Sequence record: NZ_CP024587.1 | Direction: 5' to 3' (one strand) | DNA: 64,000 nt | From: a plasmid | In this document: in pieces, positions 39,266-58,989 of the stretch | How positions within the stretch are numbered: the stretch's first letter is position 1 | Layout of the letters: every line of letters begins with the position of its first letter | The notes under the pieces: generated by a model | Seen by the model: the letters and a program-made list of their open reading frames with translations, nothing else | What the model was told of the DNA's origin: nothing | Database searches by the model: none | Program-made: the position numbers and the translations under genes

Positions 39266-39334
39266 ATACTGTCGGCGAATTGCGGAGCGATACGATCTGG
39301 CGGGTGGTAGGCGGTGCTCTCCTTCGTGGTGTAG

Positions 39335-41111
39335 ACGCCGCCTGAATCGTGGTTCTCCCGCATTTCCCGTGCTGTCGTTTTGTCATGCAGCGTTCAGCAC
39401 GCGGTTGCGGAGCAGATCGAACCCGGCACGGCCATACATGCTCCGCTTGATCAGCTTGAGCCGGTTGATCTGCCCTTCGACGGGGCTCGTGGTCCAGGGC
39501 AAGTCAAGTGCGGCCTGCACGGCATCGATGTCGCGGCACAGGTTGGCGGCATAGGATGCGAGTTCGGTCTTCTCCGCCGCGGCGAGCACCTCCGCGAGCG
39601 TCTCGCCTCCCTTGCGGCGCAGCACCTGGCGCAGCCGTCTTGCGACCGCGATCGCGGCGGCCAATCCGGGCGCTTCGGCCAGCATCCGCGCGGCAAACTG
39701 TCGCTCGGTCTCCTTTAGCGTGTTGCTGTCCGCCATCAGAATGCGCGCGACGCTGCGGCCCGAGGGCACCGGCCATGCCGGTGCCATTCGTGTGGGACGG
39801 GGCGCGGTCGGCGCTGGCTCGGTGCCACGGCGCCGGGTGGTCCAGGCGCGGACGGTGCCGGGCCGCCCAGCGAAACCCTGCGCAACCAGTTCGCGCCAGA
39901 GCTGGGCTGCGTTGCGGCAGCCCTCGGCCCAACGCCGGTCCAGCACGTCTGCAAAGGCCGCGAGGGTGCTGGTGCGCGGCCGCTGCTTCCAGGATGGGGC
40001 GTGCCCGAGGCGGAGCCAGCGGCGGACCGTCTTGCGCTCGGCCCCGAGGCGGGCGGCGATGCGGCTGATCGAAACCCCTTTGGCGCGCAGCCCTGCGGCT
40101 TCCTCGTAGCGCGCCTGCCTGCGGGCCAATGAGGCCTGGCTCGCCCGTGCCGCAGCGTTCGGCGGACGCGGTGGGGCGGGCGGCATCGGCTCGGCTGCAA
40201 TAGCGGCCGCCACCGTGTCCGCGATAAGCCGTCCCGCACGGCGCACGGCAGCAGCGTGCCGGTCGACAAGCGCGGGCACGGCATCACCGAGGTTGCGCAG
40301 CAAATGCCATCGATCCGCGACCTGGACCGCAGCAGGAGCACCCTGCCGGATCCCGTCCGCGTAGGCGCCGGCGCGATCACGCGCGACAACTTCGACGCCA
40401 GGATGGCGGCGCAGCCAGGTCGCGAGTGTTTCAGCTTGGCGATCGCGCAGCAGATCGACCACGGCGTTGCGCTCCAGGTCGACCAGCATCGTGCCGTAGC
40501 GGTGCCCCCGACGCCAGGACCAGTCATCCACACCGAGCACGCGCGGGGCTGGTAGTGGGTCATCGCGGCACGCAGCCGCACGCACAACACGCAGCAGCGT
40601 ATCGGCGCTGGTCGGCATGGCGAGCCTGTACGCCAGCCGCGCCCCGGCCTCTCCGCCGAGCGCGAGGCCGAGGCAGCGCTGCACCCCGCCCAGCCGTTCG
40701 GTCCGGCGCGCCGCAGCCGGTGCCACCTCGGCCAGGCGCTCGGCGAAGGTCTGGCGGGCGCAGGCCGAGTTGAGGCAGCGAAATCGCCGCGCGTGGACCG
40801 CCAGTGTCACCGGACGACCCTGCCAAGGCAGGTCGGCAAGGGTTCGACCGTAGCGGCTGTGCACGCGCCGCGAAGCCACGCCGCAGTCGGGACAGGCAGC
40901 GGCGTTCTGGCGCGGGCTCGCCTTGATGGTGATGTGCTCAGAGGTGGGCAGGACCTGCTGAACCAACAGTCCCGCCGGGATCAGGGGCAGGAGGCGCTTG
41001 GGCAAGGGAGACTTTCAAAGGAGGGCAGTGTTCCTCCTATGTGCTCATCCCGACCCAGAACGCCTACCCAGCAGCACGGGAAATGCGGGAGAACCACGAT
41101 TCAGGCGGCGT
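39335..41111 (-). mobile_element. ISL3-family insertion sequence, copy 1 (about 1777 bp), tnp 39383..41005 (540 aa)
   Basis: Terminal IRs acgccgcctgaatcgtggttctcccgcatttcccgtgctg (perfect). Transposase with zf-ISL3-like N-terminus (CPDCG...RFRC..C) and DDE domain. Identical to copy 2. Confidence 0.8.
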
Positions 41112-41704
41112 TGACATCGATGTCCGGGCGGACGGGTACGTGCCGGCGAAGGTGGCGGCGCGGCACCTTGGCATCACCTTGGGCGCCATTCGCGTCTGGG
41201 CTCATCGTGGCGTCCTCGCCTGCGATCAGAGCAGCCAAGCATCCAAGCTCTGGATCAGGCTCGATCCCGGCGACCTCGAGCGGCTCGGCGGACAGGCGGA
41301 CACCACCGGGATGGAACGGGCGCGCGACATCGCCGAACGGAGCGGCAGTTCGATTGCCGCGGTCTGGGAGCGCGTCCGTCGAAAGGAGTTCTCAGCCTAC
41401 CGGATCCAGAGAGGCCACAACCAGTGGGATTGGCAGCTCTCTGCCCAGATGCCAGCCTCGGCCCCACCACCCAGCCGCCATTCGTCCTCAGCAGAAAGAA
41501 CCACAGCACAATGAACACGTCTCGGACGATGGTGGCGCACGCTGGGCCGCCATCGCATCGCTCGTGGAAACCTGCAAGCTGAACGGCGTCGACCCGCAGC
41601 GCTACATCACCGACATGCTGACCCGCCTCGTCAACGGCTGGAGCGTCGACATGAGAGAGCCGGGAAGAGCAGTCATGGCCAGGATCCTTCTTCGCGAGGG
41701 ATGA
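41101..41704 (+). pseudogene. Mosaic remnant: MerR/excisionase-like HTH fragment (about 41112-41440) followed by an IS66-family transposase C-terminal fragment (about 41520-41704)
   Basis: ...VPAKVAARHLGITLGAIRVWAHRGVL... and ...ARWAAIASLVETCKLNGVDPQRYITDMLTRLVNGW (IS66 TnpC C-terminal signature). Confidence 0.45.
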
Positions 41705-41967
41705 ATCCTCCATTTCAACTGATCCCTGGCCTCCCAGCCATCACTGTCGTGTAGTGTGGCCGACTACCTCGCCCTGCTCCACTTCGCCCGCGGCTTCATT
41801 ACCGGGCAACCTGCCCTACCGGGGTAGGCTCTAAACAGGTCAGTCTCTGATGCCGTTGGTATGAGCCTAAGCGACCTCTGAACAGGCAGTCCGGTCTTTA
41901 TCCAGGCTGGCCAGTCCGGCAGGTCGGGACGGCAGCACCGCCATCCTTCGTGGCTTGGGCGGACCGG

Positions 41968-43089
41968 CTATTGCAGAGCCAGAATCTTCGCCACACCAAG
42001 ACGCATGGCGATCCATCTTAGCAAGAGAGGCCCGATCAGCCCGATTGCCGTCAGCAGCAGGAGCAAGGACAACAGGTCGATAGGCCCAAACAACTTCCAG
42101 AGGACGATCCGCGTGCCCGCGACGAAAATGACATGGGCCAGGAAGATGGGCATCGAGTTGCGCCCCATATAGGCCAACCCGGCCGCGAGCGGCCCCTTGA
42201 GACCCATCGCCAGGCCGATCGTCACCGCGGTGCCCAGGACCGCCATGGGAAGAACTTCGAGTTCCCAGGCCGCGCCTGCGACGCTTCCGGCCGAGGGACG
42301 CGGATCCTGCTGGAACAGCGGCAGCAGATCTACACGGATGGAAAACGACAGCGCCAGAAGCAGGACCCCTACTCCCACCGCAGCCATCCAGGGGCGTGGC
42401 TTCCTCAGCTGTGTCAGGCGAGGTGCATTCAGCACAAGGCCGAAGCCATAGAATACTCCGAAGAGCAGGGTCTGGCCCAGGATGCCTTCGATAGGCAGCG
42501 TCTGCGCGAGGATCCGGCCGACCACCATCATGGCGACGAAACCCCAGGCACCAATGCTGGGTAGCAGCATGGCGAGAAGATGCAGGATCGCCAGGGAGTA
42601 CAGGAACCAGAACTGCGACACCGCGTGCCAGGGCAGGCTGAGGATTGTCGTCCAGTAATCGTTAACAGGCGCATTCACGAGCGAACCCGCCAGATAGATC
42701 ACCGTCAGCTGAAGGATGGACCAGATGACGTAGGGGTAGACGATCCTCTCCACGATCGAGCGAGCGAAAGCCGGTCTCCCCTTCATGATCCGCGCCGGCA
42801 CCAGCACGGCGGAGAGGAGGAAGAACAAGGGCATGTGGAAGGTGTAGATGGCGAACATCAACATGTGCAGCCAGGATAGCTGCGGTTCGTTCATGTCGAT
42901 CAGGCCACCGGCGGCATGCCCGAGGACCACCAGCACGATACCCAACCCTTTTGCAGTATCGAGCCAAGTGAGCCGCTTCGCCCGAACGCCGCTGTTCTGC
43001 GCGTGATCCTGCTTGGGCGCGGCCGTGCCACGATCCAGCAAGGCGATGGCATCGGCCGGCAGCGCCGTACTCACAAGTTTTGGTGTCAC
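41968..43089 (-). CDS. Acyltransferase family 3 (OafA/ExoZ-like polysaccharide O-acyltransferase)
   Basis: 10-TM protein, RLTWLDTAKGLGIVLVVLGHA start typical of Acyl_transf_3. Confidence 0.7.
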   Translation of the reverse strand: MTPKLVSTALPADAIALLDRGTAAPKQDHAQNSGVRAKRLTWLDTAKGLGIVLVVLGHAAGGLIDMNEPQLSWLHMLMFAIYTFHMPLFFLLSAVLVPARIMKGRPAFARSIVERIVYPYVIWSILQLTVIYLAGSLVNAPVNDYWTTILSLPWHAVSQFWFLYSLAILHLLAMLLPSIGAWGFVAMMVVGRILAQTLPIEGILGQTLLFGVFYGFGLVLNAPRLTQLRKPRPWMAAVGVGVLLLALSFSIRVDLLPLFQQDPRPSAGSVAGAAWELEVLPMAVLGTAVTIGLAMGLKGPLAAGLAYMGRNSMPIFLAHVIFVAGTRIVLWKLFGPIDLLSLLLLLTAIGLIGPLLLRWIAMRLGVAKILALQ

Positions 43090-43345
43090 GCCGGGAACTC
43101 CGGAAGAATGGTCACCATGGCGGCAAGGTTCGCAACGATGGAACCTCGCCTGCGATGGGAAAAGGTGGAAATGGCAGTTCTGATGACGAAGGCGGGACGG
43201 GCATGGAGTGGCCTCTCCCGACAGAACGGGTTCAGCAACACGCAGTCATCACCATCGTTTCTGTAATCAGGGCGCGGAGGCCGACCAGGAAAACAATGCT
43301 TCCCCATGATCCGCTGACGCGGTCCTCGATGCGAATTCCGCCTTC

Positions 43346-44731
43346 TCATCGTGACCGGATCAGGAGCAGGACGGGCGAATCCGCGACACTGACCCGGATC
43401 TTGTCCACCTGCGGCAGTGTCTGGGAGGGTTCGGGCCCGGCAAGTGGCTCATAGACGGTGATGTCCGCCGGGGCGGCAAGGCGGAGCGAAGTCTCCGCCC
43501 CGGGCGTTTCGAGAGACTTGACAGCTTCGGGGTCCCAGACCCGGGGCTCGCGCCAGAGAGCCAGGATGAAGCCCTTGTTCGACTTCTGCATCAGAAGGCT
43601 GCGCATCCCGGGTGCGCCGGCGACGGAATAGGCCAGGGACGCGGGCGCGAAGCTCGCGGCGGCGCTGCCCATGTCCCGCATGACGGCACGGAGATTGCTG
43701 AAGACACGGGCTGCCAGCTTCGGTTTGTCGTCATTCTGGAACATACCGAAACGGCCATCCGGCTCGGTCGCAGGCCAGTCGCGCAGCGAGAAGAACAGGA
43801 TCTGTCCAGCGCCGAGTTGTACGGCCGAAAGATATGCATTCAGCAGCAGCTTCGCCTGGGTCCGCTCGTCGACTCCCATCCATTGGGTCCCGGGTGCCCG
43901 CTGGCCGGGCAGCGTGTACCAGCCCATCTCGGTGATGACGAAGGGCTTGTGCGGATCGACAGCCTCCTGACGGCCGATCGTGGCCTGGATCTCTTCCGTC
44001 GCCTGGTCTCCGTTGTTCGGATAGACATGCAGGTTGTTGAGGTCGCTGTCCGCGGCGACAAAGGGATAGGAGGATAGTCCCGCAACAGGGAGATGAGCTG
44101 TCGCCTTGTTGGCTTTCATGGCCGCGTAGAAGTCTTTCTGCCATGCCTGGGCGCCAGGAATGCCACTCAGCCCCGCATGGTCGACTCCCCAGTTGTTCGG
44201 CTCGTTCGGCCCTTCCACCAGAGCGATCGAGCCGGGAAAGCGCTTCTCGATCCGGGCGACGGCCGCCACGTTCTCATCGGGACTGTCGCCTGGATTGGCG
44301 ATGAGGCTCAACCGGAAGCCGGCCAGGACGAGTTGATCGACCGCGCCCGTCGCGGTGACGCGGTTGCCCTGTGTCGGGTTGAGAATCCGCAGAGTTCCCG
44401 CGCCGATCAGGTGCGCCTGCGAGATCATGGTCGAGATCGTGGACCAGTTTCCCTGGTGCAGGTCGGGCTGCACGCCGAGCCGCGCCGTGACATCGGCCGC
44501 TCGCACCGCCTGCACCATCTGGACACGGGCCCCGGCGTCCTGCTCTCCGTTGCTGTTCCCGGGCGTGGATGCAGATGAGGTCGCCGGGTCAACACCCGGG
44601 CGCGACGGCGGCGCCGCGATGGCACGGGCGACGAACGAAATGTGAAGCCCATCCGGGCAGCCGGGCTGGAAGACGGAAATCAGCGAAGCGATCGCCGCGG
44701 CCATCATGGCCCCGGAGCGGGGCCGCCGCAT
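43346..44731 (-). CDS. Secreted glycoside hydrolase, GH5-like (clan GH-A)
   Basis: Signal peptide MRRPRSGAMMAAAIASLISVF. Catalytic motifs EGPNEPNNWG (acid/base NEP) and FVITEMGWYT (nucleophile) about 95 aa apart. Confidence 0.55.
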   Translation of the reverse strand: MRRPRSGAMMAAAIASLISVFQPGCPDGLHISFVARAIAAPPSRPGVDPATSSASTPGNSNGEQDAGARVQMVQAVRAADVTARLGVQPDLHQGNWSTISTMISQAHLIGAGTLRILNPTQGNRVTATGAVDQLVLAGFRLSLIANPGDSPDENVAAVARIEKRFPGSIALVEGPNEPNNWGVDHAGLSGIPGAQAWQKDFYAAMKANKATAHLPVAGLSSYPFVAADSDLNNLHVYPNNGDQATEEIQATIGRQEAVDPHKPFVITEMGWYTLPGQRAPGTQWMGVDERTQAKLLLNAYLSAVQLGAGQILFFSLRDWPATEPDGRFGMFQNDDKPKLAARVFSNLRAVMRDMGSAAASFAPASLAYSVAGAPGMRSLLMQKSNKGFILALWREPRVWDPEAVKSLETPGAETSLRLAAPADITVYEPLAGPEPSQTLPQVDKIRVSVADSPVLLLIRSR

Positions 44732-44796
44732 GGTCCGAGCCTTGCCGGCGGTAGAGGCTTCCGGCGTGTCCGGCTGCCCGGTTCCTTGATATCCCG

Positions 44797-46216
44797 TCAT
44801 CGCAGGAAGCTCGCCGCCATCGGTATAGGCATCAGGTTCGTCCTGCGCGATCGCAGGGTGATCCGGGCAGCGGTGCCGACCACGATTCCCAGTTGCAGGA
44901 AAAAGCCCACCGACACAATCATCGGTGCCGACAGGACCGCCGCGGCGAGCTGCCCGATAAGGGCAGCCCGGAAACCATCAATGGCGGCCTGGCCAGGATG
45001 CTCCGGCACCACCCGCGCCGCTCTTCCGGACAGTCCGTAGATGTTCATGGCCAGCCAAATCAGGCAGAAAAGCCCGGGCACGCCACCATTGGCGAGCAGG
45101 CCCGGGATCAGGCTGGAGGAGCGGAAGCTGCCCCAGCCAACGCCGAGACCGAAAGTGCTGACCGTGGCCTGCACCGCATCAAGATCCCAGCTGGTGCGCT
45201 CGGCATAGGATTCGCCATCCTGCTTCGACATGGTGATCTCGGCGATCTTGTCGACGGCGTCGATGATCTCCGGCTTCAGGATCAGGAGGGGCGTCAGCAG
45301 GAGCAGGCTGCCCACGACCAGCGTGGCCAGGGTCCTGGTCGTACGCTGCAAACCCTCCCCGCCCCCGGTGACGGCGGCATAGCAGAGCGTCAGCGGCATA
45401 CCGGCCACCACTGTCACGATGCCGGTGGTGGACGTCGAAAGCAGGATCGTCAGCGTGGAGGTGATCAGAGAGACCTGTGGCCACATGACCCGGTGACCGC
45501 GGACGCAGAGCCAGAGACTGCAGAAGGCCACACCGGACATGTAGACCGCGAGGGCCGCGGGCTCGGCGAACGGGCCGCTGATCCGCGGGATGGAACCGAA
45601 GTTCTGCTCGACGATGGCGAAGCCGGTGTTGGAGTGGAAGAAGCTCGTCGGGAAGGGAACCCCCGCGACCCGTGAAGCGAACTGCCAGAGGCTGATCGCG
45701 AAGATCAGGTAGCCCCCCACCATATAGGCCTTGAGGAAGAGCTGGTAGTTCAGGTCGCGCCGCGTGACGTAGAGGGCGGTGGTCACGGCGGCGGCAACGT
45801 TGAGCAGCAGGTACATGGTCTGCGTGATATTGCCCGCGCTCGCCCGCAGCGGGGTCGCGAGGTAGAGCACCGCGTCCTTAGTGGGCTGTGGCCAGACGAT
45901 CACCTTGCCCTCGAAAGCATTCGGCAGCAGCAGCGCCGATCCCACCGCATAGGCTGCGAAGGCCAGAAGCGGCAGCAGTGCCCAAAGCACCACCGACTCA
46001 CCGGGATAGCGCATGCCCAGGGCATATTGCATGACTACGAAGCCCATGATCAGCAGGGCCGGAAGAGTGGCGGTCGGCAGGCCGAAGCCACCGATGAGAA
46101 GGGCTGCGCCACCCTCGAAGATGGCAGCGATCAGGGCGATCACCAGCAGCTTGTTCGGTTGCTGCCAGTAGATGAGGCAGAGCGGGATCAGGATCAGGCC
46201 GAGTTGCGTCGGTTGC
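44797..46216 (-). CDS. wzy: Wzy-type polysaccharide polymerase / O-antigen ligase family membrane protein
   Basis: About 11 TM helices with a large periplasmic loop. Start MQPTQLGLILIPLCLIYW at 46216 verified on the reverse strand. Upstream ORF extension rejected. Confidence 0.6.
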
Positions 46217-46226
46217 ATGGGGCGCC

Positions 46227-47474
46227 TCAGGGCAGTCCAAAGCGACGGGCCAGGCTCGAACGGCGCGCCGCCGCGGCCATGGCCGCACGATAGGCAGGAT
46301 CGTCCGCGAGGCGGCGCAGGGCCTGCGCCGCGGCCTCGATCCGCGGCTCCGCCCAATGGCTGCCGGCGCCATAGACCCCCGCGCCGTCGGCCACCGGTAC
46401 GAGCTCGTAGGGCACCAGGATGCTGTTCGAGGCATCCATGAATTCCAGATTCCCCGACCATCCGGTCGCCACGACCGGCAGGCCTTGCATCATGGCCTCC
46501 GCCATCGGCAGGCCGAAGCCCTCGGCGCGGTGGAGGGACAGGAACGCATCAGCGGAGCGATAGAGCGCCTGCAACCGGTCCTGGTCCAGATAGGCCTGCA
46601 CGACCTCGATGTTCGGCGCCTTGCCGATCTCGCGGCAGAGCGCCTCCATCTCTTCCGCGCGGCCGTTGAGCTTCACCACGAGGTTGGCGCGGTTCGAATC
46701 GGCGAAGGCAGCACGGAAGGCCTTCACCGCGGCGATCGGGTTCTTGCGCTCATAGCTCGAGCGGCTGTCGGCCATGGCGAGCACGGTGAAGGGACGGTCC
46801 GGGCCCGGCGTCCCACCCGACGTCTCGGGCATGGCGGGTACGGGCAGGTGGTGCGGCACGACATGGATCGGCAGCGTGAAACGACGCCGCAGGCTGTCCC
46901 GCGCGAAGCCGCTCGGCGTCCAGATCTCATGGATCAATCCCCGGGGATCCTGCCAATCGTCGGGAGGATCGGGGAGTTCCCAGGCCCAGTAGCCGATGCG
47001 CCAGGCCTTCGCCGCGCCGCGCAGGCAGCCCAGGATGAGGTTGGCGGTCTGCGGCCCGCCACTATGGAAGACATAGGCGCTGCCCGGCTGATGCGCGATC
47101 CGGGCCAGGGGGTTGCGCAGCGCGGGCGAAGCGTCGATCAGCTCGGCCTCCACCCCGATCTGCCGCAGCGCCTCGAACTGCAGCCGGGCACCCTCCGTGA
47201 TACCGTTGGCACGCTGCAGCGCCGCCACGACGCAGACACGCCTGAAGCTGCGCTCCGCCTGACTGGAGACGAGATACCGGGCCAGCATCTGCGAACCCAG
47301 CAGGTAGTTCCGGGTGAGCTGCCGTTTCAGCAGGCCGCGCAGGGCATGTCGCGAGGCACCGAGCCGGCCTGCCTGCGGGCGCGGTGCCTCCTGAACGCGG
47401 CGCTGCGCCTCGGGCTGGCCGAGGGGGACCGCCCCATCCTCCAGGCGGCCGGCATAGGCGGGTCCCTGCGACAT
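46227..47474 (-). CDS. Glycosyltransferase family 4 (GT1 fold)
   Basis: ...HRAEGFGLPMAEAMMQGLPVVATGWSG... E-x7-E region. Confidence 0.75.
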   Translation of the reverse strand: MSQGPAYAGRLEDGAVPLGQPEAQRRVQEAPRPQAGRLGASRHALRGLLKRQLTRNYLLGSQMLARYLVSSQAERSFRRVCVVAALQRANGITEGARLQFEALRQIGVEAELIDASPALRNPLARIAHQPGSAYVFHSGGPQTANLILGCLRGAAKAWRIGYWAWELPDPPDDWQDPRGLIHEIWTPSGFARDSLRRRFTLPIHVVPHHLPVPAMPETSGGTPGPDRPFTVLAMADSRSSYERKNPIAAVKAFRAAFADSNRANLVVKLNGRAEEMEALCREIGKAPNIEVVQAYLDQDRLQALYRSADAFLSLHRAEGFGLPMAEAMMQGLPVVATGWSGNLEFMDASNSILVPYELVPVADGAGVYGAGSHWAEPRIEAAAQALRRLADDPAYRAAMAAAARRSSLARRFGLP

Positions 47475-48385
47475 CAGACCTTCGACTTCGACAGTTGCAG
47501 CGCCCGTTCCGGCGCAAGCCGTCCGAGCAGCAGGTCGCGGAAGGCAATCATATTGCCTTTCAGCCGACCGCGGCGGTCCACATAGGCTTCGGGGCGCAAG
47601 GAGCGATAGAGGTTCGCGATCAGGTTGCGCGAAATGCGCGTCGCGGCATAGCGCCAGGGGTAGAATCGGGCACCCTGGTAGGTCTTCCGCGCCAGATAGA
47701 TCGGATTCGCCACCTGGGAGTAGCCGAAGGCCTGTCCGGGCGTCCGGCCCATCTTCGTGCCGAGATGCACGCCCTTCGCGCCCTTCAGCCGCAGCACATC
47801 GCCGAACATCGCCATGCGGCGGGAGAGGTCGACATCCTCCTGCCAGGAATACATCGGCAACCCGGCATCGAAGCGGAGCCGGTGGCGGCGCAGGGTCTCC
47901 CCACGCACCGCCATGTTGCAGCCATAACCGGAGAAGACCGGAACCACCGTGTCGCGGCCGGGCTCGGGCGGAATGGCTTCCAGCATGGCGGCACCCTGCT
48001 CGAAGCCCAAGCCCGAGCTGTTGATCCCATCGGCGACGACATGGCCGGTGGCCACCATCAGCTCCGGCCGGAGCAGGAAGGCACGCTCCGCCACCTCCAG
48101 CCAGTCATGAGCCGGAATGAAGTCGTCGTCGAAGAACACATAGATATCGGCATCGAGATTCGAGTCGATGATGGTGTTGCGCTGGAAGCTTGCGCCCGGC
48201 GTGCTCAACAGCACCTCAACCTCAAGCTGCAGTGAGGGCAGGTTTTTCACATCTTCTGGTTGAGAACCACAAACAACGATACGATCCGGCAAGCGTGTCT
48301 GCTGGAGGTAGCGCACCAGAGTCTGTTGCAGAAGTAGTGCCCTGCCTTTGGTCGCGATGCCGACCACGATCCTCGGCTTTTCCAT
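47474..48385 (-). CDS. Glycosyltransferase family 2
   Basis: N-terminal GT-A fold, VVGIATKGR..., DxD at FFDDDF. Confidence 0.75.
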   Translation of the reverse strand: MEKPRIVVGIATKGRALLLQQTLVRYLQQTRLPDRIVVCGSQPEDVKNLPSLQLEVEVLLSTPGASFQRNTIIDSNLDADIYVFFDDDFIPAHDWLEVAERAFLLRPELMVATGHVVADGINSSGLGFEQGAAMLEAIPPEPGRDTVVPVFSGYGCNMAVRGETLRRHRLRFDAGLPMYSWQEDVDLSRRMAMFGDVLRLKGAKGVHLGTKMGRTPGQAFGYSQVANPIYLARKTYQGARFYPWRYAATRISRNLIANLYRSLRPEAYVDRRGRLKGNMIAFRDLLLGRLAPERALQLSKSKV

Positions 48386-48567
48386 GGGGCCCTTCTATCA
48401 GCAAAACATGTCTAATGTTGGATTATAAGTGACAAATGAGATGAGCGCCGGTAGGTTGCGAAAATATGCTGCGCTGCACAGGTTTAGGGCAAGTGTATTT
48501 TTTGGTTTTTCCCGCTTTTTTGCTCCGGTCCGACGTCTATCGATCCTTGTCGTATATTAGGTAACTT
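48386..48567. promoter_or_regulatory. AT-rich divergent promoter region of the two EPS operons
   Basis: GC falls to about 40% (…tgttggattataagtgacaaatgagatgag… / …tcgtatattaggtaacttttgattgattcg…) between divergently transcribed GT genes. Confidence 0.4.
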
Positions 48568-49848
48568 TTGATTGATTCGCCCCTAGAATCATGCATCCAG
48601 ACCCTTCTCTCCGTGCCGCTGTCTTCACGGCAGCATCCTGTCCCGCCTCGCTGGAGGCCATGTCCGGAGTTCCCGCTGTTGGGTGAGCAGAAACCCAGGG
48701 TTGCGTCGCCTCGTCCCTCCGCCCAGCTCAGCCGGGCGGAGACGTCAGGTGCGGAGACCCCGATCTTCATCAATGGTCGTTTCCTGGCCCAACCACAGTC
48801 CGGCGTGCAGCGCTTCGCGGGGCAGATCGTGCGTGCCCTGGACGCAGGCGCCCTGGATGAGGGCGGGGGAACGGCGGCCGGACGGCAGGTCAGCCTTCTC
48901 GTGCCCACCGGCCTTGTCCGCGCCCCCCAGTATGAGCGGATCGGGATCCGCGAGGCCGGGCGGCGAGGCGGCCAGGTCTGGGAACAGGGCGAATTGCCGC
49001 GCGCGGCACGGAAGGGCTTCCTGATCAACCTGGGCAACACCGCGCCGATCATGGCCGGACGGCGCCAGTTGGTCGTCATCCACGATGCCGGTATCTTCGA
49101 TACGCCCTCCTCATACTCCTGGCGTTTCCGGACCTGGTACCGGGTCCTCCAGAAGCGCCTGGTGGAGCGCGAGACGCAGATCGTCACGGTCTCCGACTTC
49201 GCCCGCGGACGCATCGCGCAGCATCTGCGGATCGCCCCCGAAAGGATCGCGGTGATCGGCGAAGGCGCGGAGCACATCCGACAGGAGGCGGCGGATCCCG
49301 GAATCCTCGGCTGCCATGGGCTGGAGCGGGGCCGCTATGTCCTGGCCGTGGGCAACCGGGCCGCGCACAAGAAGCTCGACATCCTCGGAGCGATCGTCCC
49401 GCACTTAAAGGCGCAGGGGCTGACGCTGGCGGTGGCCGGCTCGATCGACCAGAAGGTCTTCCAGACGCAGTCGGACGATCCGCTCGGGGCAGCCTGCCTC
49501 CTCGGCCGGGTGACGGACGGCGAGCTGCGCGCGCTCTACGAGAATGCCTTCTGCCTGCTCTTTCCTTCGAGCTACGAGGGCTTCGGCCTGCCACCGGTGG
49601 AGGCGATGCTGTGCGGCTGCCCGGTCATCACCGGACGCGGCACCTCGGTGGAGGAGATCTGCGGCGAGGTCGCGCTCTATGCCGGGGATTCCCCGTCAAG
49701 CCTCCTGCAATGCATCACCGCCCTGGCGGCCCCCGAACTGCACGCGCGGCTGCGCCACGAGGGCGTTCACAAGGCTGAGCGGCTGACCTGGTACCGTGCC
49801 GCCTCCCAGCTCATGGCCGTCGCCGAGCGTCAGCTGCGGAATCTCTGA
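48568..49848 (+). CDS. Glycosyltransferase family 4; the true start is probably downstream of 48568 (possibly TTG 48679)
   Basis: ...LFPSSYEGFGLPPVEAMLCGCPVITGRGTS.... The first about 60 aa lack similarity. Confidence 0.7.
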   Translation: MIDSPLESCIQTLLSVPLSSRQHPVPPRWRPCPEFPLLGEQKPRVASPRPSAQLSRAETSGAETPIFINGRFLAQPQSGVQRFAGQIVRALDAGALDEGGGTAAGRQVSLLVPTGLVRAPQYERIGIREAGRRGGQVWEQGELPRAARKGFLINLGNTAPIMAGRRQLVVIHDAGIFDTPSSYSWRFRTWYRVLQKRLVERETQIVTVSDFARGRIAQHLRIAPERIAVIGEGAEHIRQEAADPGILGCHGLERGRYVLAVGNRAAHKKLDILGAIVPHLKAQGLTLAVAGSIDQKVFQTQSDDPLGAACLLGRVTDGELRALYENAFCLLFPSSYEGFGLPPVEAMLCGCPVITGRGTSVEEICGEVALYAGDSPSSLLQCITALAAPELHARLRHEGVHKAERLTWYRAASQLMAVAERQLRNL

Positions 49849-49851
49849 GAC

Positions 49852-51090
49852 ATGACACCCAAAGTCGCGATCGTCCATGAATGGCTCGACACCTATGCGG
49901 GGTCCGAGCGTGTCCTCGAGCAGATGCTCCGTTGCTGGCCGGAAGCGGACATCTTCGCGGTCTGCGACTTCCTCCCTCCTGGCGAGCGTGGCTTCCTGCA
50001 GGGGCGCTCGGTGCGCACGAGCTTCATCCAGCGCCTGCCCTTCGCCCGGAAGCATTTCCGGAAATACCTCGGGCTGATGCCGCTCGCGGTCAGTCAGCTC
50101 GACCTGACCGGCTACGACATCGTCGTCTCCAGCCATCATGCCGTGGCCAAGGGCGTGATCGTTGGCCCCTCCCAGGTCCATGTGAGCTACGTGCACTCGC
50201 CCATGCGCTATGCCTGGGACCTGCAGCACCAGTACCTGCGCCAGGCCGGCCTCGAACGTGGCCCGATGGGGGCCTATACACGCTGGCTGCTCCACCGGTT
50301 GCGCCAGTGGGACCGCTCCACCGCCGCGGGCGTCGACGTCTTCGTCGCCAATTCCGCTTATATAGGGGAACGGGTCCGCAAGACGTGGCGGCGCGAAGCC
50401 GAAGTCATTTACCCGCCGGTGGATCTGGAGAGCTTCTCTCAACAGAGCCCGAAGGAGGACTTCTTCCTGGTGGCGTCGCGCTTCGTTCCCTACAAGCGCG
50501 TGGACATGATCGCCGCCGCCTTTCGCGCCATGCCCGAAGCGAAGCTGCTGGTCGTCGGCGGCGGACCGGAGGAGCAGGCCGTGCATCAGGCGGCAGGCGG
50601 GGCGCCGAACATCACCTTCCTGCCGCCCGTGCCCAAGGCCGAACTCGTGCACCTGTTCCAGCGGGCCCGCGCGGTGATCTTCGCCGCCGAGGAGGATTTC
50701 GGCATCACCACCGTGGAGGCGCAAGCCTGCGGCACACCGGTCATCGCCTATGGACGCGGCGGAGCGCGGGAGATCATCCATACCGGTCCCGGTCCGCTCA
50801 CCGGCGTGCTGTTCGAGGAGCAGACGCCGGAATCGCTGATGGCCGCGGTGCGGGAATTCGAATCCAGGCGGGAGGAGTTCGATCCTATCACCTGCCGCGC
50901 CAATGCCGAACGCTTCTCCGCGCCACGCTTCCGTCAGGAAATCAAGGAGCTGGTCGAGCGCGCCTATCTGGTCCACGGGAAGGTGCCGGAACCGGCCAAG
51001 CCGCCGCTGACGATTCCACCGCCCATGGCGACGCGGCGCCCCGCCGTCCACGCCGTCCACGCCTCCGCCAGCCCGGGTGAGGTCCGATGA
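49852..51090 (+). CDS. Glycosyltransferase family 4
   Basis: ...AAEEDFGITTVEAQACGTPVIAYGRGG.... Confidence 0.8.
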   Translation: MTPKVAIVHEWLDTYAGSERVLEQMLRCWPEADIFAVCDFLPPGERGFLQGRSVRTSFIQRLPFARKHFRKYLGLMPLAVSQLDLTGYDIVVSSHHAVAKGVIVGPSQVHVSYVHSPMRYAWDLQHQYLRQAGLERGPMGAYTRWLLHRLRQWDRSTAAGVDVFVANSAYIGERVRKTWRREAEVIYPPVDLESFSQQSPKEDFFLVASRFVPYKRVDMIAAAFRAMPEAKLLVVGGGPEEQAVHQAAGGAPNITFLPPVPKAELVHLFQRARAVIFAAEEDFGITTVEAQACGTPVIAYGRGGAREIIHTGPGPLTGVLFEEQTPESLMAAVREFESRREEFDPITCRANAERFSAPRFRQEIKELVERAYLVHGKVPEPAKPPLTIPPPMATRRPAVHAVHASASPGEVR

Positions 51091-52637
51091 ACCAGGACAC
51101 GGACCCGACGCAGCCGGAAGCGCAGGCGATCACGGCGAAACGGAATTTCCTGGCCGGCGCAGGTTGGAACGCACTCGGCCGGGGCCTGCCGCTGCTCCTG
51201 GCGCTGGTGCTGACGCCGATTCTGCTGTCCCAGATGGGCGTCGAGCGCTGGGGCATCTTCACCCTGGCGCTGAGCCTGGTCGGAGTGGTCAGCATCCTGG
51301 ATCTGGGCATCGGCGCCTCGCTGACCCGGGTCGTGGCGGCGGAGCTGGCGGTGGGTCGCGAGGACCGCGCCGCGGCCATGATCACCACCGCGCTCGCGAT
51401 CCTCGCCGTGGTGCTGATCCCCTTCACCCTGGTCGCGGTGACCTTCATGCCGGCCGTGGTGGACCATGCGCTGAACGTGCCGCCCGCATTGCGGGACCAG
51501 AGTATCGCGGCGCTGCGCATCATGGTGCTGACCTTGCCGCTGGTGGTGCTCAGCGCCGCGCTATGGGGCACGCTGACAGCCTGCCAGCTCTTCCGCGCCG
51601 CGAACCTCGTCAACATCCCGGTCGGCATCTTCTACTATCTCGGCCCGGCAATCGCCCTGGCGCTGTGGGACAACATGGTGGGCGTGATGCTGTCGCTGGC
51701 TTTGCTGCGGTTGGTGACCTGCATCGCCTATTTCGTGCTCGTATGGCGTCGCTTGCCGGCATTGCACCATTGGCCGAGGCCGGAATGGCGCAATGCCCGG
51801 AGCCTGATGAAGACCGGCGTCTGGATGATGCTGTCCAACATCCTCTCGCCTCTTTCCCTTTATGGCGACCGCTTCCTGATCGGTGCGCTCTTTCCGCTCG
51901 CGGTCGTCTCCTACTACACGACCTCCTTCGACCTGCTCACGCGCTTCTGGATCGTCTCGGTCTCGGTCACCGGCGCGCTGTTTCCCGCCATGGCATCCAC
52001 CTTCTCCTCGGATCCTGCGCGGACGGGTACGCTGATGCGCCATGGCGCCGCCCTGGTGATCGGGCTCCTCTTCCCCGCCTGCCTCATCACCGTGCTGTTC
52101 GCCAAGCCGCTTCTGTCCCTCTGGCTGCATGCGGATTTTGCCGAGCACAGCTACGGCGTGCTGCGCATCCTGGCCATCGGCATCTTCTTCAGCTGCTCGG
52201 GGAGCACGGCGGGCTCCTTCCTGGATGCGATCGGCCGGCCGGATGCCGGGGCAAAGTTCATGGCCCTCCTGGCCGTGCTGTTCATCCCGCTTGCCATGCT
52301 GTTGACTTGGCGCTTCGGCATCACGGGGGCCGCGGTGGCCTTCGCGCTGCGGTCGGCCACGGAATGCCTGGGGCGCCTCGCCCTGTGCCGTAACCTTCAG
52401 CCGCAGGCGGATCGGGACAGCCGGATCATCGGTTCCGTCTCAGCGATGGGAGGACTCATCCTGGCCATCAGTATCTTCGTTCCGGCCGGGATCATGTCCT
52501 TCCTGACCGTCCTGACCGTCCTGCCCGCCTACCTGCTTTTCGGCGCCTATTGCATGTTCGAGCGTCACGAACGCCTCGTGGCTCTTGCAGGCATGCTCCG
52601 GCTTATGCCGCGCCGCATCGGCGCATCCGTATCATGA
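51087..52637 (+). CDS. wzx: Wzx-type polysaccharide flippase (MOP superfamily)
   Basis: 12-14 TM helices, oligosaccharide-flippase-like N-terminus (NFLAGAGWNALGRGLPLLLALVLTPILL). Confidence 0.75.
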   Translation: MNQDTDPTQPEAQAITAKRNFLAGAGWNALGRGLPLLLALVLTPILLSQMGVERWGIFTLALSLVGVVSILDLGIGASLTRVVAAELAVGREDRAAAMITTALAILAVVLIPFTLVAVTFMPAVVDHALNVPPALRDQSIAALRIMVLTLPLVVLSAALWGTLTACQLFRAANLVNIPVGIFYYLGPAIALALWDNMVGVMLSLALLRLVTCIAYFVLVWRRLPALHHWPRPEWRNARSLMKTGVWMMLSNILSPLSLYGDRFLIGALFPLAVVSYYTTSFDLLTRFWIVSVSVTGALFPAMASTFSSDPARTGTLMRHGAALVIGLLFPACLITVLFAKPLLSLWLHADFAEHSYGVLRILAIGIFFSCSGSTAGSFLDAIGRPDAGAKFMALLAVLFIPLAMLLTWRFGITGAAVAFALRSATECLGRLALCRNLQPQADRDSRIIGSVSAMGGLILAISIFVPAGIMSFLTVLTVLPAYLLFGAYCMFERHERLVALAGMLRLMPRRIGASVS

Positions 52638-52659
52638 TCGCCCGATCGAGGATCCCTTT

Positions 52660-54909
52660 ATGAGCCAGAGCTCAACCCCGACTACGGTGGTGTCGACAGG
52701 GTTTGATCCTGCGGCACAGATGGAGCCTATCGGAGTTCCATTCGGCCGAGTCTTCCACGTCCTGCGCCGGCGCAAGGGGGTGATCCTCGGCATCATCGTC
52801 CTGGGCATGGCTGGGGTGACCGCCGTCGTCATGCAGCTGCCGCCCCGCTATACCGCGGAGGCGCAGATCCTGATCGAACCCCGGCGGACCCAGGTGTCGG
52901 ATCTGCAGGCGATCACGACGGAACAGGTCGACGTTTCCAACCTGATGCGCACGCAGATCGACATCTTCCGCTCGCCAGCTCTGGCGGCCAAGGTGGTCGA
53001 GGCCCTGGATCTCACCAACATGCCGGGCTTCCTGCCAGAGCCCGGCGGGCTGTCCGCCCTCCTGGCGGATGCGAAGCGGTGGTCCATGGAAATGTTGGGC
53101 CTGGCCACCCCGGCCCCCCGGCTGGAAGGCCCCCTGGACCGTGAGCAGCTCGCGATCCAGAAGGTGCTGGGGCTGATCACCTTCTCGAACGAGGCGCGCT
53201 CCAATGTCCTGCGCGTCTCGGCGGAGACCGAGGATCCGCAGCTGAGCGCCAATATCGCCAACGAGATCTCCAACCGCTTCCTGGACTTCAAGAGGAACCA
53301 GAAGTTCGCGGCCACGCAGCGCGCGCATGACTGGTTCCAGGAGCGGCTGGCGGAGCTTTCCGTGAAGGTCCGGGCTTCCGAGCGGCGCATCTCGGAGTAC
53401 CGGGAGCAGTTCGGGCTGAATGACACGCCCCTGGCGCGCGATGGCGAAGCGCGGACGCCCTCGGTCAACGCGCAGCAGCTCAACGAGATCACGCGGCAGC
53501 TCTCGCTGGTGACCGGAGATCGCGTCGGCAAGGAATCGAGGCTCAATCAGGTCAACACCGTGCTGCGCAACGGTGGACGCATGGACACCTTGCCGGAGGT
53601 CGTGGACTCCCCCCTGATCCAGGCCCTGCGCCAGCAGGAGGCCGTGGCCATCGGCCGCGAGGCGCAGCTCTCCGCTTCTGCCAGCGAGCGCAGTCCGGAA
53701 TTCCTCGCTGCCCAGGCGCAGCGGCGCGGCCTGCAGCGGCGCATCCAGGAGGAAGCCTCGAACATCGTTTCCGGGCTCAACAACGAGGTCATCGCGATCC
53801 GGGCGCGGGAAGCATCCCTGCGCAACACCCTCGACAACTTGCGCAGCGGCGTGGCGGTCGAGAATGCGGCGGAGATCCAGCTCCAGGCCCTCACCACCGA
53901 GGCACGGGCCAACCGCGTCCTCTATGAGAGCTACCTCAACCGCGCGGTGCAGTTGGCCAACCTGACCGGCATCCAGGAGCCGGACGCCGAGATGGTCTCT
54001 CCGGCAGCGGTGCCGCCCTCCCCTTCCGCGCCCCAGCGCAGCCGGATCCTGGTCGCCGCCTTTCTGGTCATCTCCGTGCTGGCGATCGCCATCGGCTTCC
54101 TGCTCGAGCGCCTTCGGACCACCTTCAGCAGCGCCGAGGAGCTGGAGGCCGCTCTTGGGATCATGCCCTTCGGGCTGATCCCCAAGACGTCGCAGCGCGC
54201 CCGCGCGCTGGGTAACGCGAATAGCACAAGCGCCCTTCAGTTCGCGGCGGCCCTGAGCAAGGTGCGGGGCGGGCTACAGGTCCTCCAGGTGGAGAAGCGC
54301 CCGAAGGTGATCATGATCACCTCTGCCCTGCCCAAGGAGGGGAAGACGGTCTTCGCAACCAGCTTCGCCAAGAGCGCGGCAAGCAGTGGCTGGCGCGTCC
54401 TGCTGATCGATGCCGATATGCACCGCCCTGGCGTGGCGGCACAGTTTGGTCTTTCCCCTTCGCCCGGCCTGGACGAGGTTCTCACCAGCACGGATCCTGC
54501 GGACTATGCCCGGGCGGTGCGGACGGTGGCGGACAGGCTCGATGTACTTCCTACCTCGGTGAGCGCGGCCACGCCGCAGGATCTCCTGGCCTCCGACCGG
54601 ATGGCGGAGATCATCCGGAAAGCCCGGGAAGACTACGATGTCGTCGTGATCGACACGCCGCCGGTGGTGCCGACCGTGGATGGGCTGATCCTGGCCCACC
54701 TGACGGATGCAACGATCCTGGCGGTCAGGTGGGAGAAGACATCGCGCTCCTCAGCACAACTGGCCTTGCGCCTGCTGCGCAGCAGTAGTGCGACCCTGGT
54801 TGGAAGCGTACTGACACAGGTGGATTTCAAGCGCGCCGGCATCTCCCGGGCGCAGAACATGGCCTATCTTTACCGCAAGCATCTCAAGATCAAGCGCTCG
54901 GCGGTGTGA
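52660..54909 (+). CDS. wzc: Polysaccharide co-polymerase / BY-tyrosine autokinase (Wzc/ExoP-like)
   Basis: Wzz-like periplasmic domain flanked by two TMs. C-terminal kinase with Walker A ITSALPKEGKTVFATSFA, DxD (LLIDADMH), Walker B (YDVVVIDTPP), C-terminal Tyr (AYLYRKH). Confidence 0.8.
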   Translation: MSQSSTPTTVVSTGFDPAAQMEPIGVPFGRVFHVLRRRKGVILGIIVLGMAGVTAVVMQLPPRYTAEAQILIEPRRTQVSDLQAITTEQVDVSNLMRTQIDIFRSPALAAKVVEALDLTNMPGFLPEPGGLSALLADAKRWSMEMLGLATPAPRLEGPLDREQLAIQKVLGLITFSNEARSNVLRVSAETEDPQLSANIANEISNRFLDFKRNQKFAATQRAHDWFQERLAELSVKVRASERRISEYREQFGLNDTPLARDGEARTPSVNAQQLNEITRQLSLVTGDRVGKESRLNQVNTVLRNGGRMDTLPEVVDSPLIQALRQQEAVAIGREAQLSASASERSPEFLAAQAQRRGLQRRIQEEASNIVSGLNNEVIAIRAREASLRNTLDNLRSGVAVENAAEIQLQALTTEARANRVLYESYLNRAVQLANLTGIQEPDAEMVSPAAVPPSPSAPQRSRILVAAFLVISVLAIAIGFLLERLRTTFSSAEELEAALGIMPFGLIPKTSQRARALGNANSTSALQFAAALSKVRGGLQVLQVEKRPKVIMITSALPKEGKTVFATSFAKSAASSGWRVLLIDADMHRPGVAAQFGLSPSPGLDEVLTSTDPADYARAVRTVADRLDVLPTSVSAATPQDLLASDRMAEIIRKAREDYDVVVIDTPPVVPTVDGLILAHLTDATILAVRWEKTSRSSAQLALRLLRSSSATLVGSVLTQVDFKRAGISRAQNMAYLYRKHLKIKRSAV

Positions 54910-55400: not shown

Positions 55401-56895
55401 ACCCTACGTGGTCGGCTCTGAACAACCTGATCAGGCCGTTCGGCCCATTGCTGGATGGCGACTGGTCTGTGTGAGGGCCTGAACGAGGCTGGCGAGAAAG
55501 GCGAGCAAGAGAGCCCTGAGGTGGGCGAGGATCTTGCGGATATTGCGGCCGCAGCCGCAGAGGACGGCGTGGAGGGCATCGCCGAGGGTGCCCTTGAGGG
55601 CGCAGCGGGCGAGACGGCCGTCGGACTTCATGTGGCCGATCTCGGGCTCGATGGCGCTGCGGCGGCGCAGCAGCCGGCGCAGGCGGGGTGTCAGGCCGCG
55701 GCGCGTGCCGCTGACGAGCACCCTGGTGCCGGTCACGCCATGGCCGCGGTAGCCACGGTCGACCACGGCGAGGCTGGGGCGGAGGCCGGTGAGGGTCTCG
55801 ACCTGCTGGAGGGCGTCGGCGAGGGTGTGGCCGTCATAGGGATTGCCGGGCTGGCTGCGCATGCCGACGACGAAACCGTCCTCGATGGTGGTGGCGATGC
55901 TGACCTTCGTGCCGAACTCGTAGCGCACCCTGGCCTTGCCCTTGGCGATGCAGTCCACCTCCTGCTCGTGCAGGGCGTAGAGCTTGCGGGGCGTCTTCGG
56001 CGTCTGGCGCAGCAGGCGGGTGACGAGCGCCATCCTGTCGTTGATCCGATCCCGCAGCCTCCCCTCGGGGACGGCGCCGAGCTTGCGGCCCACGTCGCGC
56101 AGGACGCGGCCGGTGTAGCCCTTGAGGGTGCGCAGCGCCTTGCGCATGCGGCGGAACTGCCGGGCATGGGCGTGCCGCCCCACCTGGCCCGCCAGGCGCG
56201 GGGCCAGGCGGCTGTAGGTCTGCCGCAGGGCGATCCCGGCTTTCCGCGCCAGCGTCACCAGCGAGCGGCGCGCCTTCTCGTAGAGACGGCTGTCGGTCGG
56301 GTGGGCGATGGCCTTCTCCATCACGGTGGTGTCTACCGCGACCTCGGCCAGGCTGCGCTCCGACACCGCACCCGCGGCGCGGCCCGCCTCGATCGTCTTG
56401 GTCAGCAGCCACTCGACACCTTCCTCACCGATACGGCTGCGCCAGCGGCTGAGCGAGGAGGGGTGGATGGGCGGACGGTGCTGGAAGAACGTCTCGCCGG
56501 TGAAGTGCTGGAAGTACGGGTTCTCCACCCAGCGCGCGAGCACCGCCTCGTCGGAGAGGCCGTAGGCATGCTGCAGGTACATCAGCCCTGCCACCAGACG
56601 CGGATGCGCGGCAGGCCGTCCCTCGGTGCCGGGGAAGAAGCCTGTCCACTCCCGCTCGAACCACGCCCAGTCGATCAACGCCGCCAGCCGCACCAGTTCG
56701 TGCCGCCCATCGATCATGTCGACCAGCCGCGGCCGCAGCAGATCGTCCTGTTCCGGCGGGCGCGGGCGATGCTTCATGCCCGCCAGAATCGCAGGGTTTG
56801 CCGCTGAAAACAATTGAACCCGGCAAATCCGGGACACCCAGACCAGCAGATTCCCTGGCTAAATCAGAGCGTTGCGAGTTGTTCAAGGCCGACTC
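55401..56895 (-). mobile_element. IS5-family (IS1182-like) insertion sequence, about 1.5 kb, tnp 55431..56837 (468 aa)
   Basis: IRs GTCGGCTCTGAACAAC (55403) / GTTGTTCAAGGCCGAC (56877). Transposase with InsH-N-terminal-like domain (LLRPRLVDMIDGRHELVRLAALIDW) and DDE domain. Confidence 0.7.
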
Positions 56896-57194
56896 AGTAT
56901 GTCGACCGTTGTGCCGCCCGCTACGAGCGCGGCGCCATGATCCTGACTTCCAATCGCGGCTTTGCCGAGTGGGGCGAGGTGTTCGGCGAACCGGTGGTGG
57001 CGACCGCGCTGCTCGACCGGCTGCTGCACCATGCGGTGGTCGTGTCGATCGAGGGCTCCAGCTACCGCCTGCGCCAGCACGCGGACCTGGTGCCGGAGAG
57101 CCTGCGCCCCGCCGCCAGCACCCTCGCGCAGCCTCCACCGCGGCGCCGGGGCAGACCGCCCAAGCCAAGAGGTGCCGATCCCAGCAACGGCTGA
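56880..57194 (+). pseudogene. IS21-family IstB (ATP-binding helper) C-terminal fragment
   Basis: ...ERGAMILTSNRGFAEWGEVFGEPVVATALLDRLLHHAVVVSIEGSSYRLRQHADLVPE matches the IstB C-terminus. 5' part missing. Confidence 0.6.
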
Positions 57195-57206
57195 TCCCCG
57201 GACCCA

Positions 57207-58987: not shown

Positions 58988-58989
58988 TG

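Follow-up and report, generated by a model that had tools for sequence, protein, structure and literature searches.

Does the exopolysaccharide (EPS) gene island at positions 41968-54909 of plasmid sequence NZ_CP024587.1 lack the enzyme that starts its polymer, or does that enzyme lie beyond the end of the DNA that was read? Coordinates are positions in the window, meaning the whole 64-kb stretch of this record. An earlier sequence-only reading had described an island bracketed by insertion sequences (ISs), with two divergent operons and without a priming glycosyltransferase (GT), Wza or Wzb. We consider it likely that this interval makes up the larger half of a Wzx/Wzy-dependent EPS locus borne on a Roseomonas mucosa plasmid and cut into two blocks by ISs. 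The priming enzyme very probably belongs to the second block, just past the window end.

Nine coding genes were recognized within the interval (block 1), from the open reading frame (ORF) listing and the codon-position G + C content:

41968-43089, minus strand: membrane O-acyltransferase of the Acyl_transf_3 family, 373 aa (PF01757, E 9.6e-27)
43346-44800, minus strand: predicted PslG-like glycoside hydrolase of clan GH-A, 484 aa, here labeled GH1 (alignment, AlphaFold2 (AF2) model, Foldseek)
44797-46218, minus strand: candidate Wzy-like polymerase, 473 aa, polytopic (WaaL/Wzy_C superfamily fold)
46227-47474, minus strand: GT4 glycosyltransferase, 415 aa (Glycos_transf_1, E 1.4e-14)
47474-48385, minus strand: probable glycosyltransferase of the GT-A fold (GT2-like), 303 aa, which heads the minus-strand set (sub-threshold NCBIfam matches and an FFDDDF motif)
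48386-48678: divergent intergenic region (G + C content, promoter scan)
48679-49848, plus strand: GT4 glycosyltransferase, 389 aa by gene callers (Glyco_trans_1_4, E 5e-17)
49852-51090, plus strand: GT4 glycosyltransferase, 412 aa (Glycos_transf_1, E 1e-25, and Glyco_transf_4)
51087-52637, plus strand: Wzx flippase of the MOP family, 516 aa (Polysacc_synt, E 7e-18, Polysacc_synt_3 and MatE)
52720-54909, plus strand: ExoP/GumC-type polysaccharide co-polymerase of class 2a (PCP-2a) with a bacterial tyrosine kinase (BY-kinase) domain, 729 aa, here ExoP (Wzz, GNVR and AAA_31 in Pfam; TIGR01005)

The content, strands and coordinates previously given for these genes all held against the ORF listing, Pfam and NCBIfam. 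Six of the nine were above curated cut-offs in Pfam and NCBIfam, including all three GT4 genes (Pfam). The flippase scored 65 bits for Polysacc_synt (cut-off 28.2) and 42.6 for Polysacc_synt_3 (cut-off 23), and had ~12 hydrophobic segments. The acyltransferase had ~10 such segments by hydropathy and a weak NolL-like NCBIfam match. For the GT4 gene at 48679 the longest ORF begins at a TTG at 48568, and the gene callers prefer 48679; ExoP has alternative starts at 52660 and 52585. The label GT2 given to 47474-48385 was not supported in that form. Its GT2-type NCBIfam matches were all far under their cut-offs (HpsN E 4e-7, MftF 3e-6, EpsD 1e-3), the FFDDDF motif was present in the translation, no Pfam match was found, and a PDB sequence search was uninformative (E > 0.2).

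The description as a Wzx/Wzy-dependent locus in two divergent sets was also supported, with translationally coupled gene sets and a co-polymerase of the PCP-2a (ExoP/GumC) type. On the minus strand, the GT-A-like and GT4 genes share 1 nt and GH1 overlaps the Wzy candidate by 4 nt, while the acyltransferase is set apart from GH1 by a 256-nt gap. An AT-rich region does separate the two sets, with a G + C content of 44.7% (48386-48600) vs 67.9% for the window. The island as a whole had 66%, and the acyltransferase and GT-A-like gene, in its left arm, 61.6-62.7%. A sigma-70 promoter scan found no consensus site in the island, including the divergent intergenic region; the scan is silent on promoter locations.

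With respect to initiation, no Bac_transf or WecA-type gene was detected by Pfam among the window ORFs scanned, and three Bac_transf proteins used as tblastn queries gave nothing in any frame of the window. The same Pfam scan found neither Poly_export (Wza) nor LMW-PTP/LMWPc (Wzb) domains, so the reported absence of all three functions from the interval was confirmed. In other R. mucosa assemblies, two independent contigs free of N continue past the window's right end. Positions 9909-10144 of contig L091 (ENA ERZ28604720) were 100% identical to window 64000->63765 (236 bp), and positions 7911-8090 of contig L094 (GCA_054574535.1) to window 64000->63821 (180 bp). Both showed the same order: the end of the element ISL3-C, a short segment Q with which the window closes, debris of IS256 and IS630 elements, GT8, PAP2, Bac_transf, a 468-aa ORF (the hydrolase GH2) and an IS with a DDE_Tnp_1 transposase. 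The assembly GCA_054574535.1 also contained, on contig L008, the window's left junction, with the acyltransferase followed by an IS66 fragment and ISL3-A. In window-equivalent positions, block 2 would read:

~65.9-66.9 kb: GT8 glycosyltransferase
~67.0-67.6 kb: PAP2 protein
~67.8-68.5 kb: Bac_transf priming glycosyltransferase
~69.0-70.4 kb: hydrolase GH2

The Bac_transf protein has 255 aa, with PF02397 at residues 58-249 (E 6.5e-62, 208.7 bits, cut-off 27) and a hydrophobic stretch visible ahead of the catalytic domain. It matched the WbaP model TIGR03022 with 296 bits on the C-terminal 200 positions (full-length cut-off 403), and is of the small type that corresponds to ExoY or the C-terminal part of WbaP.

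The accessions of Roseomonas sp. FDAARGOS_362 pointed to the same order. The protein clusters of the island include members with accessions of this strain, and the locus appears to be identical or near-identical to that of FDAARGOS_362. ATR19579-19582 are the two GT4 proteins, the flippase and ExoP, and ATR19591, the ninth protein after ExoP by accession order, is the priming GT. ExoP and the priming GT are each recorded on a 143,864-bp contig, presumably the same one. The eight accessions in between would be the proteins of IS1182, ISL3-B, GalE, DDE_3, ISL3-C, an HTH protein, GT8 and PAP2. From the identity of the window end with the N-free contigs and from this accession order, we place the priming enzyme, very probably, downstream, ~12.9 kb from the stop codon of ExoP and ~3.8 kb past the window end. 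Its absence from the window is then very probably a boundary effect, and the locus split rather than truncated. The claim that the island lacks a priming GT does not stand, since a Bac_transf gene is present in block 2, which in the N-free contigs is contiguous with the window's right end. The earlier alternative of dependence on the chromosome or truncation by ISs came nearer the truth in its second half, with the correction that the locus was split; the chromosome could be called on for Wza and Wzb only.

Several observations tie block 2 to block 1 as one system. In function they complement each other, block 1 being without a priming GT and block 2 without Wzx, Wzy or PCP. GH2 is a paralogue of GH1. 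The G + C content of block 2 (59-62%) resembles the left arm of the island and lies under the 68% of the window. Clusters around ExoP homologues (48-49% identity) have Bac_transf within ~5 kb. A galE gene lies between the blocks, and their outer edges have an IS end in common. The position of GalE would also fit a priming enzyme of the WbaP subfamily, probably one that transfers galactose-1-phosphate. Searched against the contigs of GTDB representative genomes, the Bac_transf protein gave nothing nearer than 52% identity, indicating that these representatives, presumably including that of R. mucosa, are without block 2. Look-ups of the GalE and priming-GT proteins led to short or scaffolded contigs only.

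One further record was set aside. In JAVVDR010000024.1 (GCA_032251555.1; L005/L090), the acyltransferase is followed by a 6.4-kb segment with the 468-aa ORF, Bac_transf, PAP2 and GT8, whose end matches the last 265 bp of the window at 100% identity. We rejected it as proof of a priming GT beside the acyltransferase, because 10-N gaps occur at exactly those junctions.

The locus is an ordinary Wzx/Wzy-type EPS cluster on a conjugative plasmid, a known kind of system. The analysis shows the gene identities, the IS architecture, the absence of a priming GT, Wza and Wzb from the window, the contiguity of the window end with block 2 in other assemblies and the paralogy of GH1 and GH2, whereas the sugar specificity, the activity of the operons and the continued joint action of both blocks are inferred. 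Judged from knowledge of the families, synthesis would start with the small ExoY/WbaP-type phosphoglycosyl transferase of block 2, which would prime undecaprenyl phosphate, probably with galactose-1-phosphate, and GalE could provide the UDP-galactose. Five GTs (three GT4 and the GT-A-like protein of block 1, and GT8 of block 2) would assemble the repeat unit. The sequence-only reading had derived at least 4-5 sugars from four GTs; with GT8 and the priming enzyme added, up to six are possible. The Acyl_transf_3 enzyme would O-acylate the unit, Wzx would move it across the inner membrane, and the WaaL/Wzy_C-fold protein would polymerise it under the control of the ExoP/GumC PCP-2a BY-kinase. GH1 and GH2 may trim or release the polymer, with outer-membrane export through an outer-membrane polysaccharide export protein (OPX) encoded elsewhere.

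ExoP matched TIGR01005 with 296 bits (E 6e-88; NCBIfam). Its N-terminal part had Wzz above cut-off (40 bits vs 25.5) and GNVR under it (21 vs 27.7), with transmembrane segments at 63-87 and 484-512. The kinase domain scored 110.7 bits for TIGR01007 (cut-off 108.05), and the motifs Walker A (ALPKEGKT), A' (VLLIDADMHRP) and B (VVVIDTPP) were all complete. Matches to the NCBIfam Wzc/Etk models (E 1e-34 to 1e-35) were far under their cut-offs. The protein is 100% identical to the NCBI entry "GumC family protein [Roseomonas mucosa]" and at most 54% identical to its nearest relatives outside R. mucosa. Its 90%-identity cluster also holds a 2054-aa "glycosyltransferase family 4 protein" from Zopfia rhizophila, a fungus (KAF2174613.1; perhaps a gene model in which GT4, Wzx and ExoP are fused), and entries labeled "MAG: Azospirillum brasilense". 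Both probably reflect Roseomonas contamination or mislabeling in public records.

The Wzy candidate itself had no Pfam match. Its family counted 1488 representatives at E<=1e-3, and PF04932 (Wzy_C) was found in 20 of 46 aligned relatives. A longer ORF of 554 aa (start 46461) was dropped, as it overlaps the GT4 gene by 235 nt and the gene callers give 473 aa.

Some observations count against a single, working locus in two blocks. The placement of block 2 was derived from identical sequence in other assemblies and from the order of accessions, and JAVVDR010000024.1, being a scaffold, says nothing on the adjacency of block 2 and acyltransferase. About 9 kb of IS debris parts the blocks, any promoter for block 2 is hypothetical, and the system may be impaired. 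IS junctions vary from strain to strain, so the arrangement is not fixed. Neither the scanned window ORFs nor block 2 had a Poly_export or LMW-PTP/LMWPc domain by Pfam. The last 30 residues of ExoP hold two tyrosines only (YLY). Calling the 473-aa protein a Wzy is sensible given its context, although polymerases and WaaL-type ligases are alike in sequence and in predicted fold. As for export, no Poly_export was found within 10 kb in the clusters around the ExoP homologues either, and a distant OPX therefore seems normal for this ExoP group.

These points can be read in other ways. If the island were self-contained save for initiation and export, it would borrow a chromosomal priming transferase, together with Wza and Wzb, and block 2 would serve a different glycan. 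The ~9 kb of ISs between blocks that are not co-transcribed, the strain-variable junctions, and the fact that Wza and Wzb come from elsewhere anyway are all in keeping with this. We regard it as unlikely, since block 2 encodes a paralogue of the rare hydrolase, the blocks are complementary in function and similar in G + C content, and related clusters hold Bac_transf within 5 kb of ExoP. The locus might instead be a decaying, non-functional remnant that makes no polymer, uncoupled by IS insertions and rearrangements. At least eight IS elements or fragments lie in 25 kb, a 2.9-kb segment has the opposite orientation in another strain, the left junctions vary, and OPX and phosphatase are not present. 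Moreover, the island had no megablast match among 72,556 PLSDB plasmids, even those with a closely related backbone of the type IVB secretion system (T4BSS). Against such decay, the nine island ORFs, GalE and the four ORFs of block 2 were all full length, with coding-type G + C content at third codon positions and intact catalytic motifs. Copies of the island from several isolates and from skin metagenomes were 99.8-100% identical, its gene calls had no frameshifts, and all ISs sit between genes, none inside one. Decay thus appears improbable.

The ambiguity of the 473-aa protein opens a third reading, in which it is a ligase and the polymer an O-antigen or a lipid-linked capsule (K-LPS). The sole significant PDB match of its AF2 model (pLDDT 93) was the WaaL ligase 7tpg (E 2.9e-7), Wzy_C is common to ligases and polymerases, and the GT8 of block 2 weakly resembles lipopolysaccharide (LPS) alpha-galactosyltransferases. 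By family knowledge, however, EPS or capsule systems typically have a PCP-2a with a kinase domain, as opposed to a PCP-1 of the Wzz type, and glycanases of their own, and neither block has another polymerase candidate, which would leave a Wzx pathway without a Wzy. We give this reading very little credence. The split EPS locus accounts best for the two blocks, and we keep to it below.

The most novel element of the locus is its pair of rare PslG-like hydrolases. GH1 had been described as GH5-like, a label that we replace: the protein matched no family of Pfam or NCBIfam at E<=0.01, and its best PDB match by sequence was at E 0.2, to enzymes of family GH2. Its own family is rare, with 17 matches in a word-indexed search of 5.8 billion proteins, several of them with HemolysinCabind repeats. 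Across 16 aligned sequences the motifs GPNE(200)P, H258-x-Y260 and T-E(291)-x-G were invariant or nearly so, which is the signature of clan GH-A. E200 (GPNEPNNW) is the putative acid/base and E291 (ITEMGW) the putative nucleophile; the family conserves NEP and TE(M/T)G. The N-terminus is Arg-rich, with a hydrophobic export or anchor segment. The AF2 model (pLDDT 81, pTM 0.79) has a (beta/alpha)8 barrel and a C-terminal beta-sandwich. With this model, the top Foldseek matches were PslG structures (4zn2/5bx9/9g17, E 7e-20 to 2e-18; TM-score 0.53-0.64, sequence identity 16-17%), ahead of enzymes of families GH39, GH51, GH2, GH30 and GH5. From alignment and model together, GH1 is a predicted PslG-like hydrolase of clan GH-A, with PslG (GH39-like) as its best fold.

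Over 391 aa, GH2 shares 34% identity with GH1 (E 6e-72), and its catalytic motifs are the same. It has no N-terminal export segment, and RTX repeats occur in some of its relatives. In public records both proteins are named only "calcium-binding", "carbohydrate-binding" or "hypothetical". A homologue in Methylobacterium frigidaeris adjoins a Wzx/GT4/GT8 cluster. More distant paralogues are present on other R. mucosa plasmids, as at 71183-72703 of the HV2 plasmid NZ_CP025064.1 (33-35% identity, "carbohydrate-binding domain-containing protein"). We rejected the HV2 gene as a member of an EPS cluster; in the one context checked it stands alone.

The ISs around the blocks, with GalE among them, were as follows:

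39330-41116, minus strand: ISL3-A, complete ISL3-family element (DDE_Tnp_ISL3 and Zn_ribbon_ISL3 in Pfam; repeats), with a 540-aa transposase at 39383-41005 and 45-bp terminal inverted repeats
41117-41641, plus strand: IS66-family transposase fragment, truncated at both ends (PF13817 DDE_Tnp_IS66_C, E 6e-12, profile positions 1-30 of 39)
41642-41765, plus strand: 124-bp terminal remnant of a DDE_Tnp_1 IS (99.2% matches beside the 468-aa hydrolase gene in contigs L091-L095 and L097)
~55414-56894, minus strand: IS1182-like element, 468-aa transposase at 55431-56837 (DUF772 and DDE_Tnp_1; terminal repeats)
56895-57204, plus strand: IstB-like (IS21 helper) fragment (inspection of the translation alone)
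57205-58992, minus strand: ISL3-B, diverged copy of ISL3 (identity to ISL3-A 65-79% over the repeat blocks D1-D6)
58993 to ~59780, plus strand: 3' part of another IS1182-like element, interrupted by ISL3-B (575-bp tract, 99% inverted repeat of 55595-56169)
59835-60839, minus strand: GalE, UDP-glucose 4-epimerase, 334 aa (TIGR01179, 411 bits, cut-off 262; Epimerase, E 3e-52)
61032-61607, minus strand: IS630-type DDE_3 transposase fragment (PF13358, E 1.4e-29)
62038-63824, minus strand: ISL3-C, 100% identical to ISL3-A and in direct orientation (repeat analysis)
63825-64000, plus strand: segment Q, start of IS debris that in other assemblies runs without a gap into block 2

The island is thus IS-bracketed, as had been stated, with debris beyond that described before (the 124-bp remnant, the IstB-like fragment and the IS1182 fragment). 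The IS end at 41642-41765 recurs in inverted orientation at the far edge of block 2, and in contig L006 the intact DDE_Tnp_1 IS, with a 320-aa transposase, adjoins the acyltransferase. Inverted IS ends at both outer edges suggest a composite-transposon-like module of ~29 kb (41766 to ~70.4 kb). A wider proposal would combine two claims: that GH1 and GH2 represent a new EPS-processing family of clan GH-A, with an export-signal and a signal-less form, and that the ~29-kb EPS region moves as a composite transposon between Dot/Icm plasmids. We offer it tentatively, as a possibility that we would not favor at present.

Other features of the ISs concern rearrangement. ISL3-A and ISL3-C are identical direct copies 22.7 kb apart that flank block 1 and GalE, and recombination between them could delete or excise both. 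The segment 56170-59117 (2.9 kb, including ISL3-B) lies between the 575-bp 99% inverted IS1182 repeats (55595-59692 region), and its opposite orientation in GCA_032251555.1 (contig L003) indicates that it was flipped by recombination. The IS1182 copies are only 81% identical beside the 99% tract, pointing to mosaic elements. Variants of ISL3 have a 499-bp end in common with ISL3-B and differ from it beyond that end, which likewise makes them mosaic. A 517-aa ISL3 variant and the DDE_Tnp_1 IS form a repeated composite unit (L091 837-3484; L006 10419-12158) that in some strains adjoins the acyltransferase and GH2. GalE had a G + C content of 50% (island 66%, window 68%) and occurred in public assemblies on short IS-bounded contigs only; it looks like a separately acquired piece.

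To the left of the EPS region, from position 1 to ~39.3 kb, the window is a conjugation backbone of the Dot/Icm-type T4BSS, encoding DotM, DotB, DotD, DotG/TrbI, DotH/IcmK, DotI/IcmL and IcmW, as well as a FIST protein. This part is interrupted by an IS5-family transposase gene (DDE_Tnp_1_5) at 20827-21693 and a truncated copy at 23199-23597 with identical N-terminal sequence. The backbone was 95% identical to the R. gilardii plasmid NZ_CP015585.1 and, up to ~39.26 kb, 90-93% identical to the R. mucosa AD1 plasmid NZ_CP025190.1. Past that point AD1 carries non-ribosomal peptide synthetase, CysCD and major facilitator superfamily genes and an IS66 element in place of the EPS region. This different cargo and the absence of PLSDB matches indicate that the EPS region is variable cargo. 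The supposed T4BSS replicon context was borne out: here the island is embedded on such a backbone. It does not always travel with it, since plasmids with related backbones carry none.

Roseomonas mucosa, a commensal of human skin and an opportunist, has undergone trials as a topical biotherapeutic. A literature search on the genetics of its exopolysaccharides found nothing specific. Biofilm formation and interaction with the host are likely to depend, in a strain-specific way, on surface polysaccharides, and a strain-variable plasmid EPS locus could help to explain phenotypic differences from isolate to isolate. The PslG-like pair are candidates for a new family of EPS-degrading enzymes, which could serve in biofilm dispersal. 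There is also a methodological lesson: where a pathway step seems to be missing at a window edge next to ISs, other assemblies should be compared before a biological reading is given.

With the group 1 capsule and colanic acid systems of Escherichia coli (Wza-Wzb-Wzc) the locus shares a Wzc-like PCP-2a with Walker A, A' and B motifs, a Wzx and, if the candidate is one, a Wzy. It differs from them in having no Wza or Wzb in the window or block 2, a minimal YLY tail, and a priming enzyme of the short form with the catalytic domain only. The xanthan gum system of Xanthomonas (GumB-GumM) is alike in the GumC-family name of its PCP, its Wzx/Wzy dependence, its Acyl_transf_3 acyltransferases and its Bac_transf priming enzyme, whereas GumC is without a kinase domain, the OPX GumB adjoins GumC, and the gum genes form a single operon without IS disruption.

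The closest analogues are the succinoglycan system (exo/exs) of Sinorhizobium meliloti and, for the hydrolase, Psl with PslG. The Psl operon of Pseudomonas aeruginosa likewise has its own endoglycosidase with a TIM barrel and a beta-sandwich, while it includes an OPX (PslD) and a large priming enzyme (PslA), and the locus studied here has two hydrolase paralogues. Judged from knowledge of the exo gene families, the succinoglycan system is similarly alphaproteobacterial, replicon-borne and Wzx/Wzy-dependent, and it combines a kinase-bearing PCP-2a of the ExoP type with a small ExoY-like Bac_transf, an ExoZ-like Acyl_transf_3 and two dedicated glycanases. The present locus differs from it in having no ExoF-type OPX, in its GT set (three GT4, one GT-A-like and one GT8) and in glycanases that would be PslG-like members of clan GH-A, not GH16. 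In S. meliloti, ExoK has a signal peptide and ExsH is an RTX-type protein secreted by a type I secretion system. This division of labor may be mirrored here, by GH1 with its export signal and by the signal-less GH2 with its RTX-bearing relatives.

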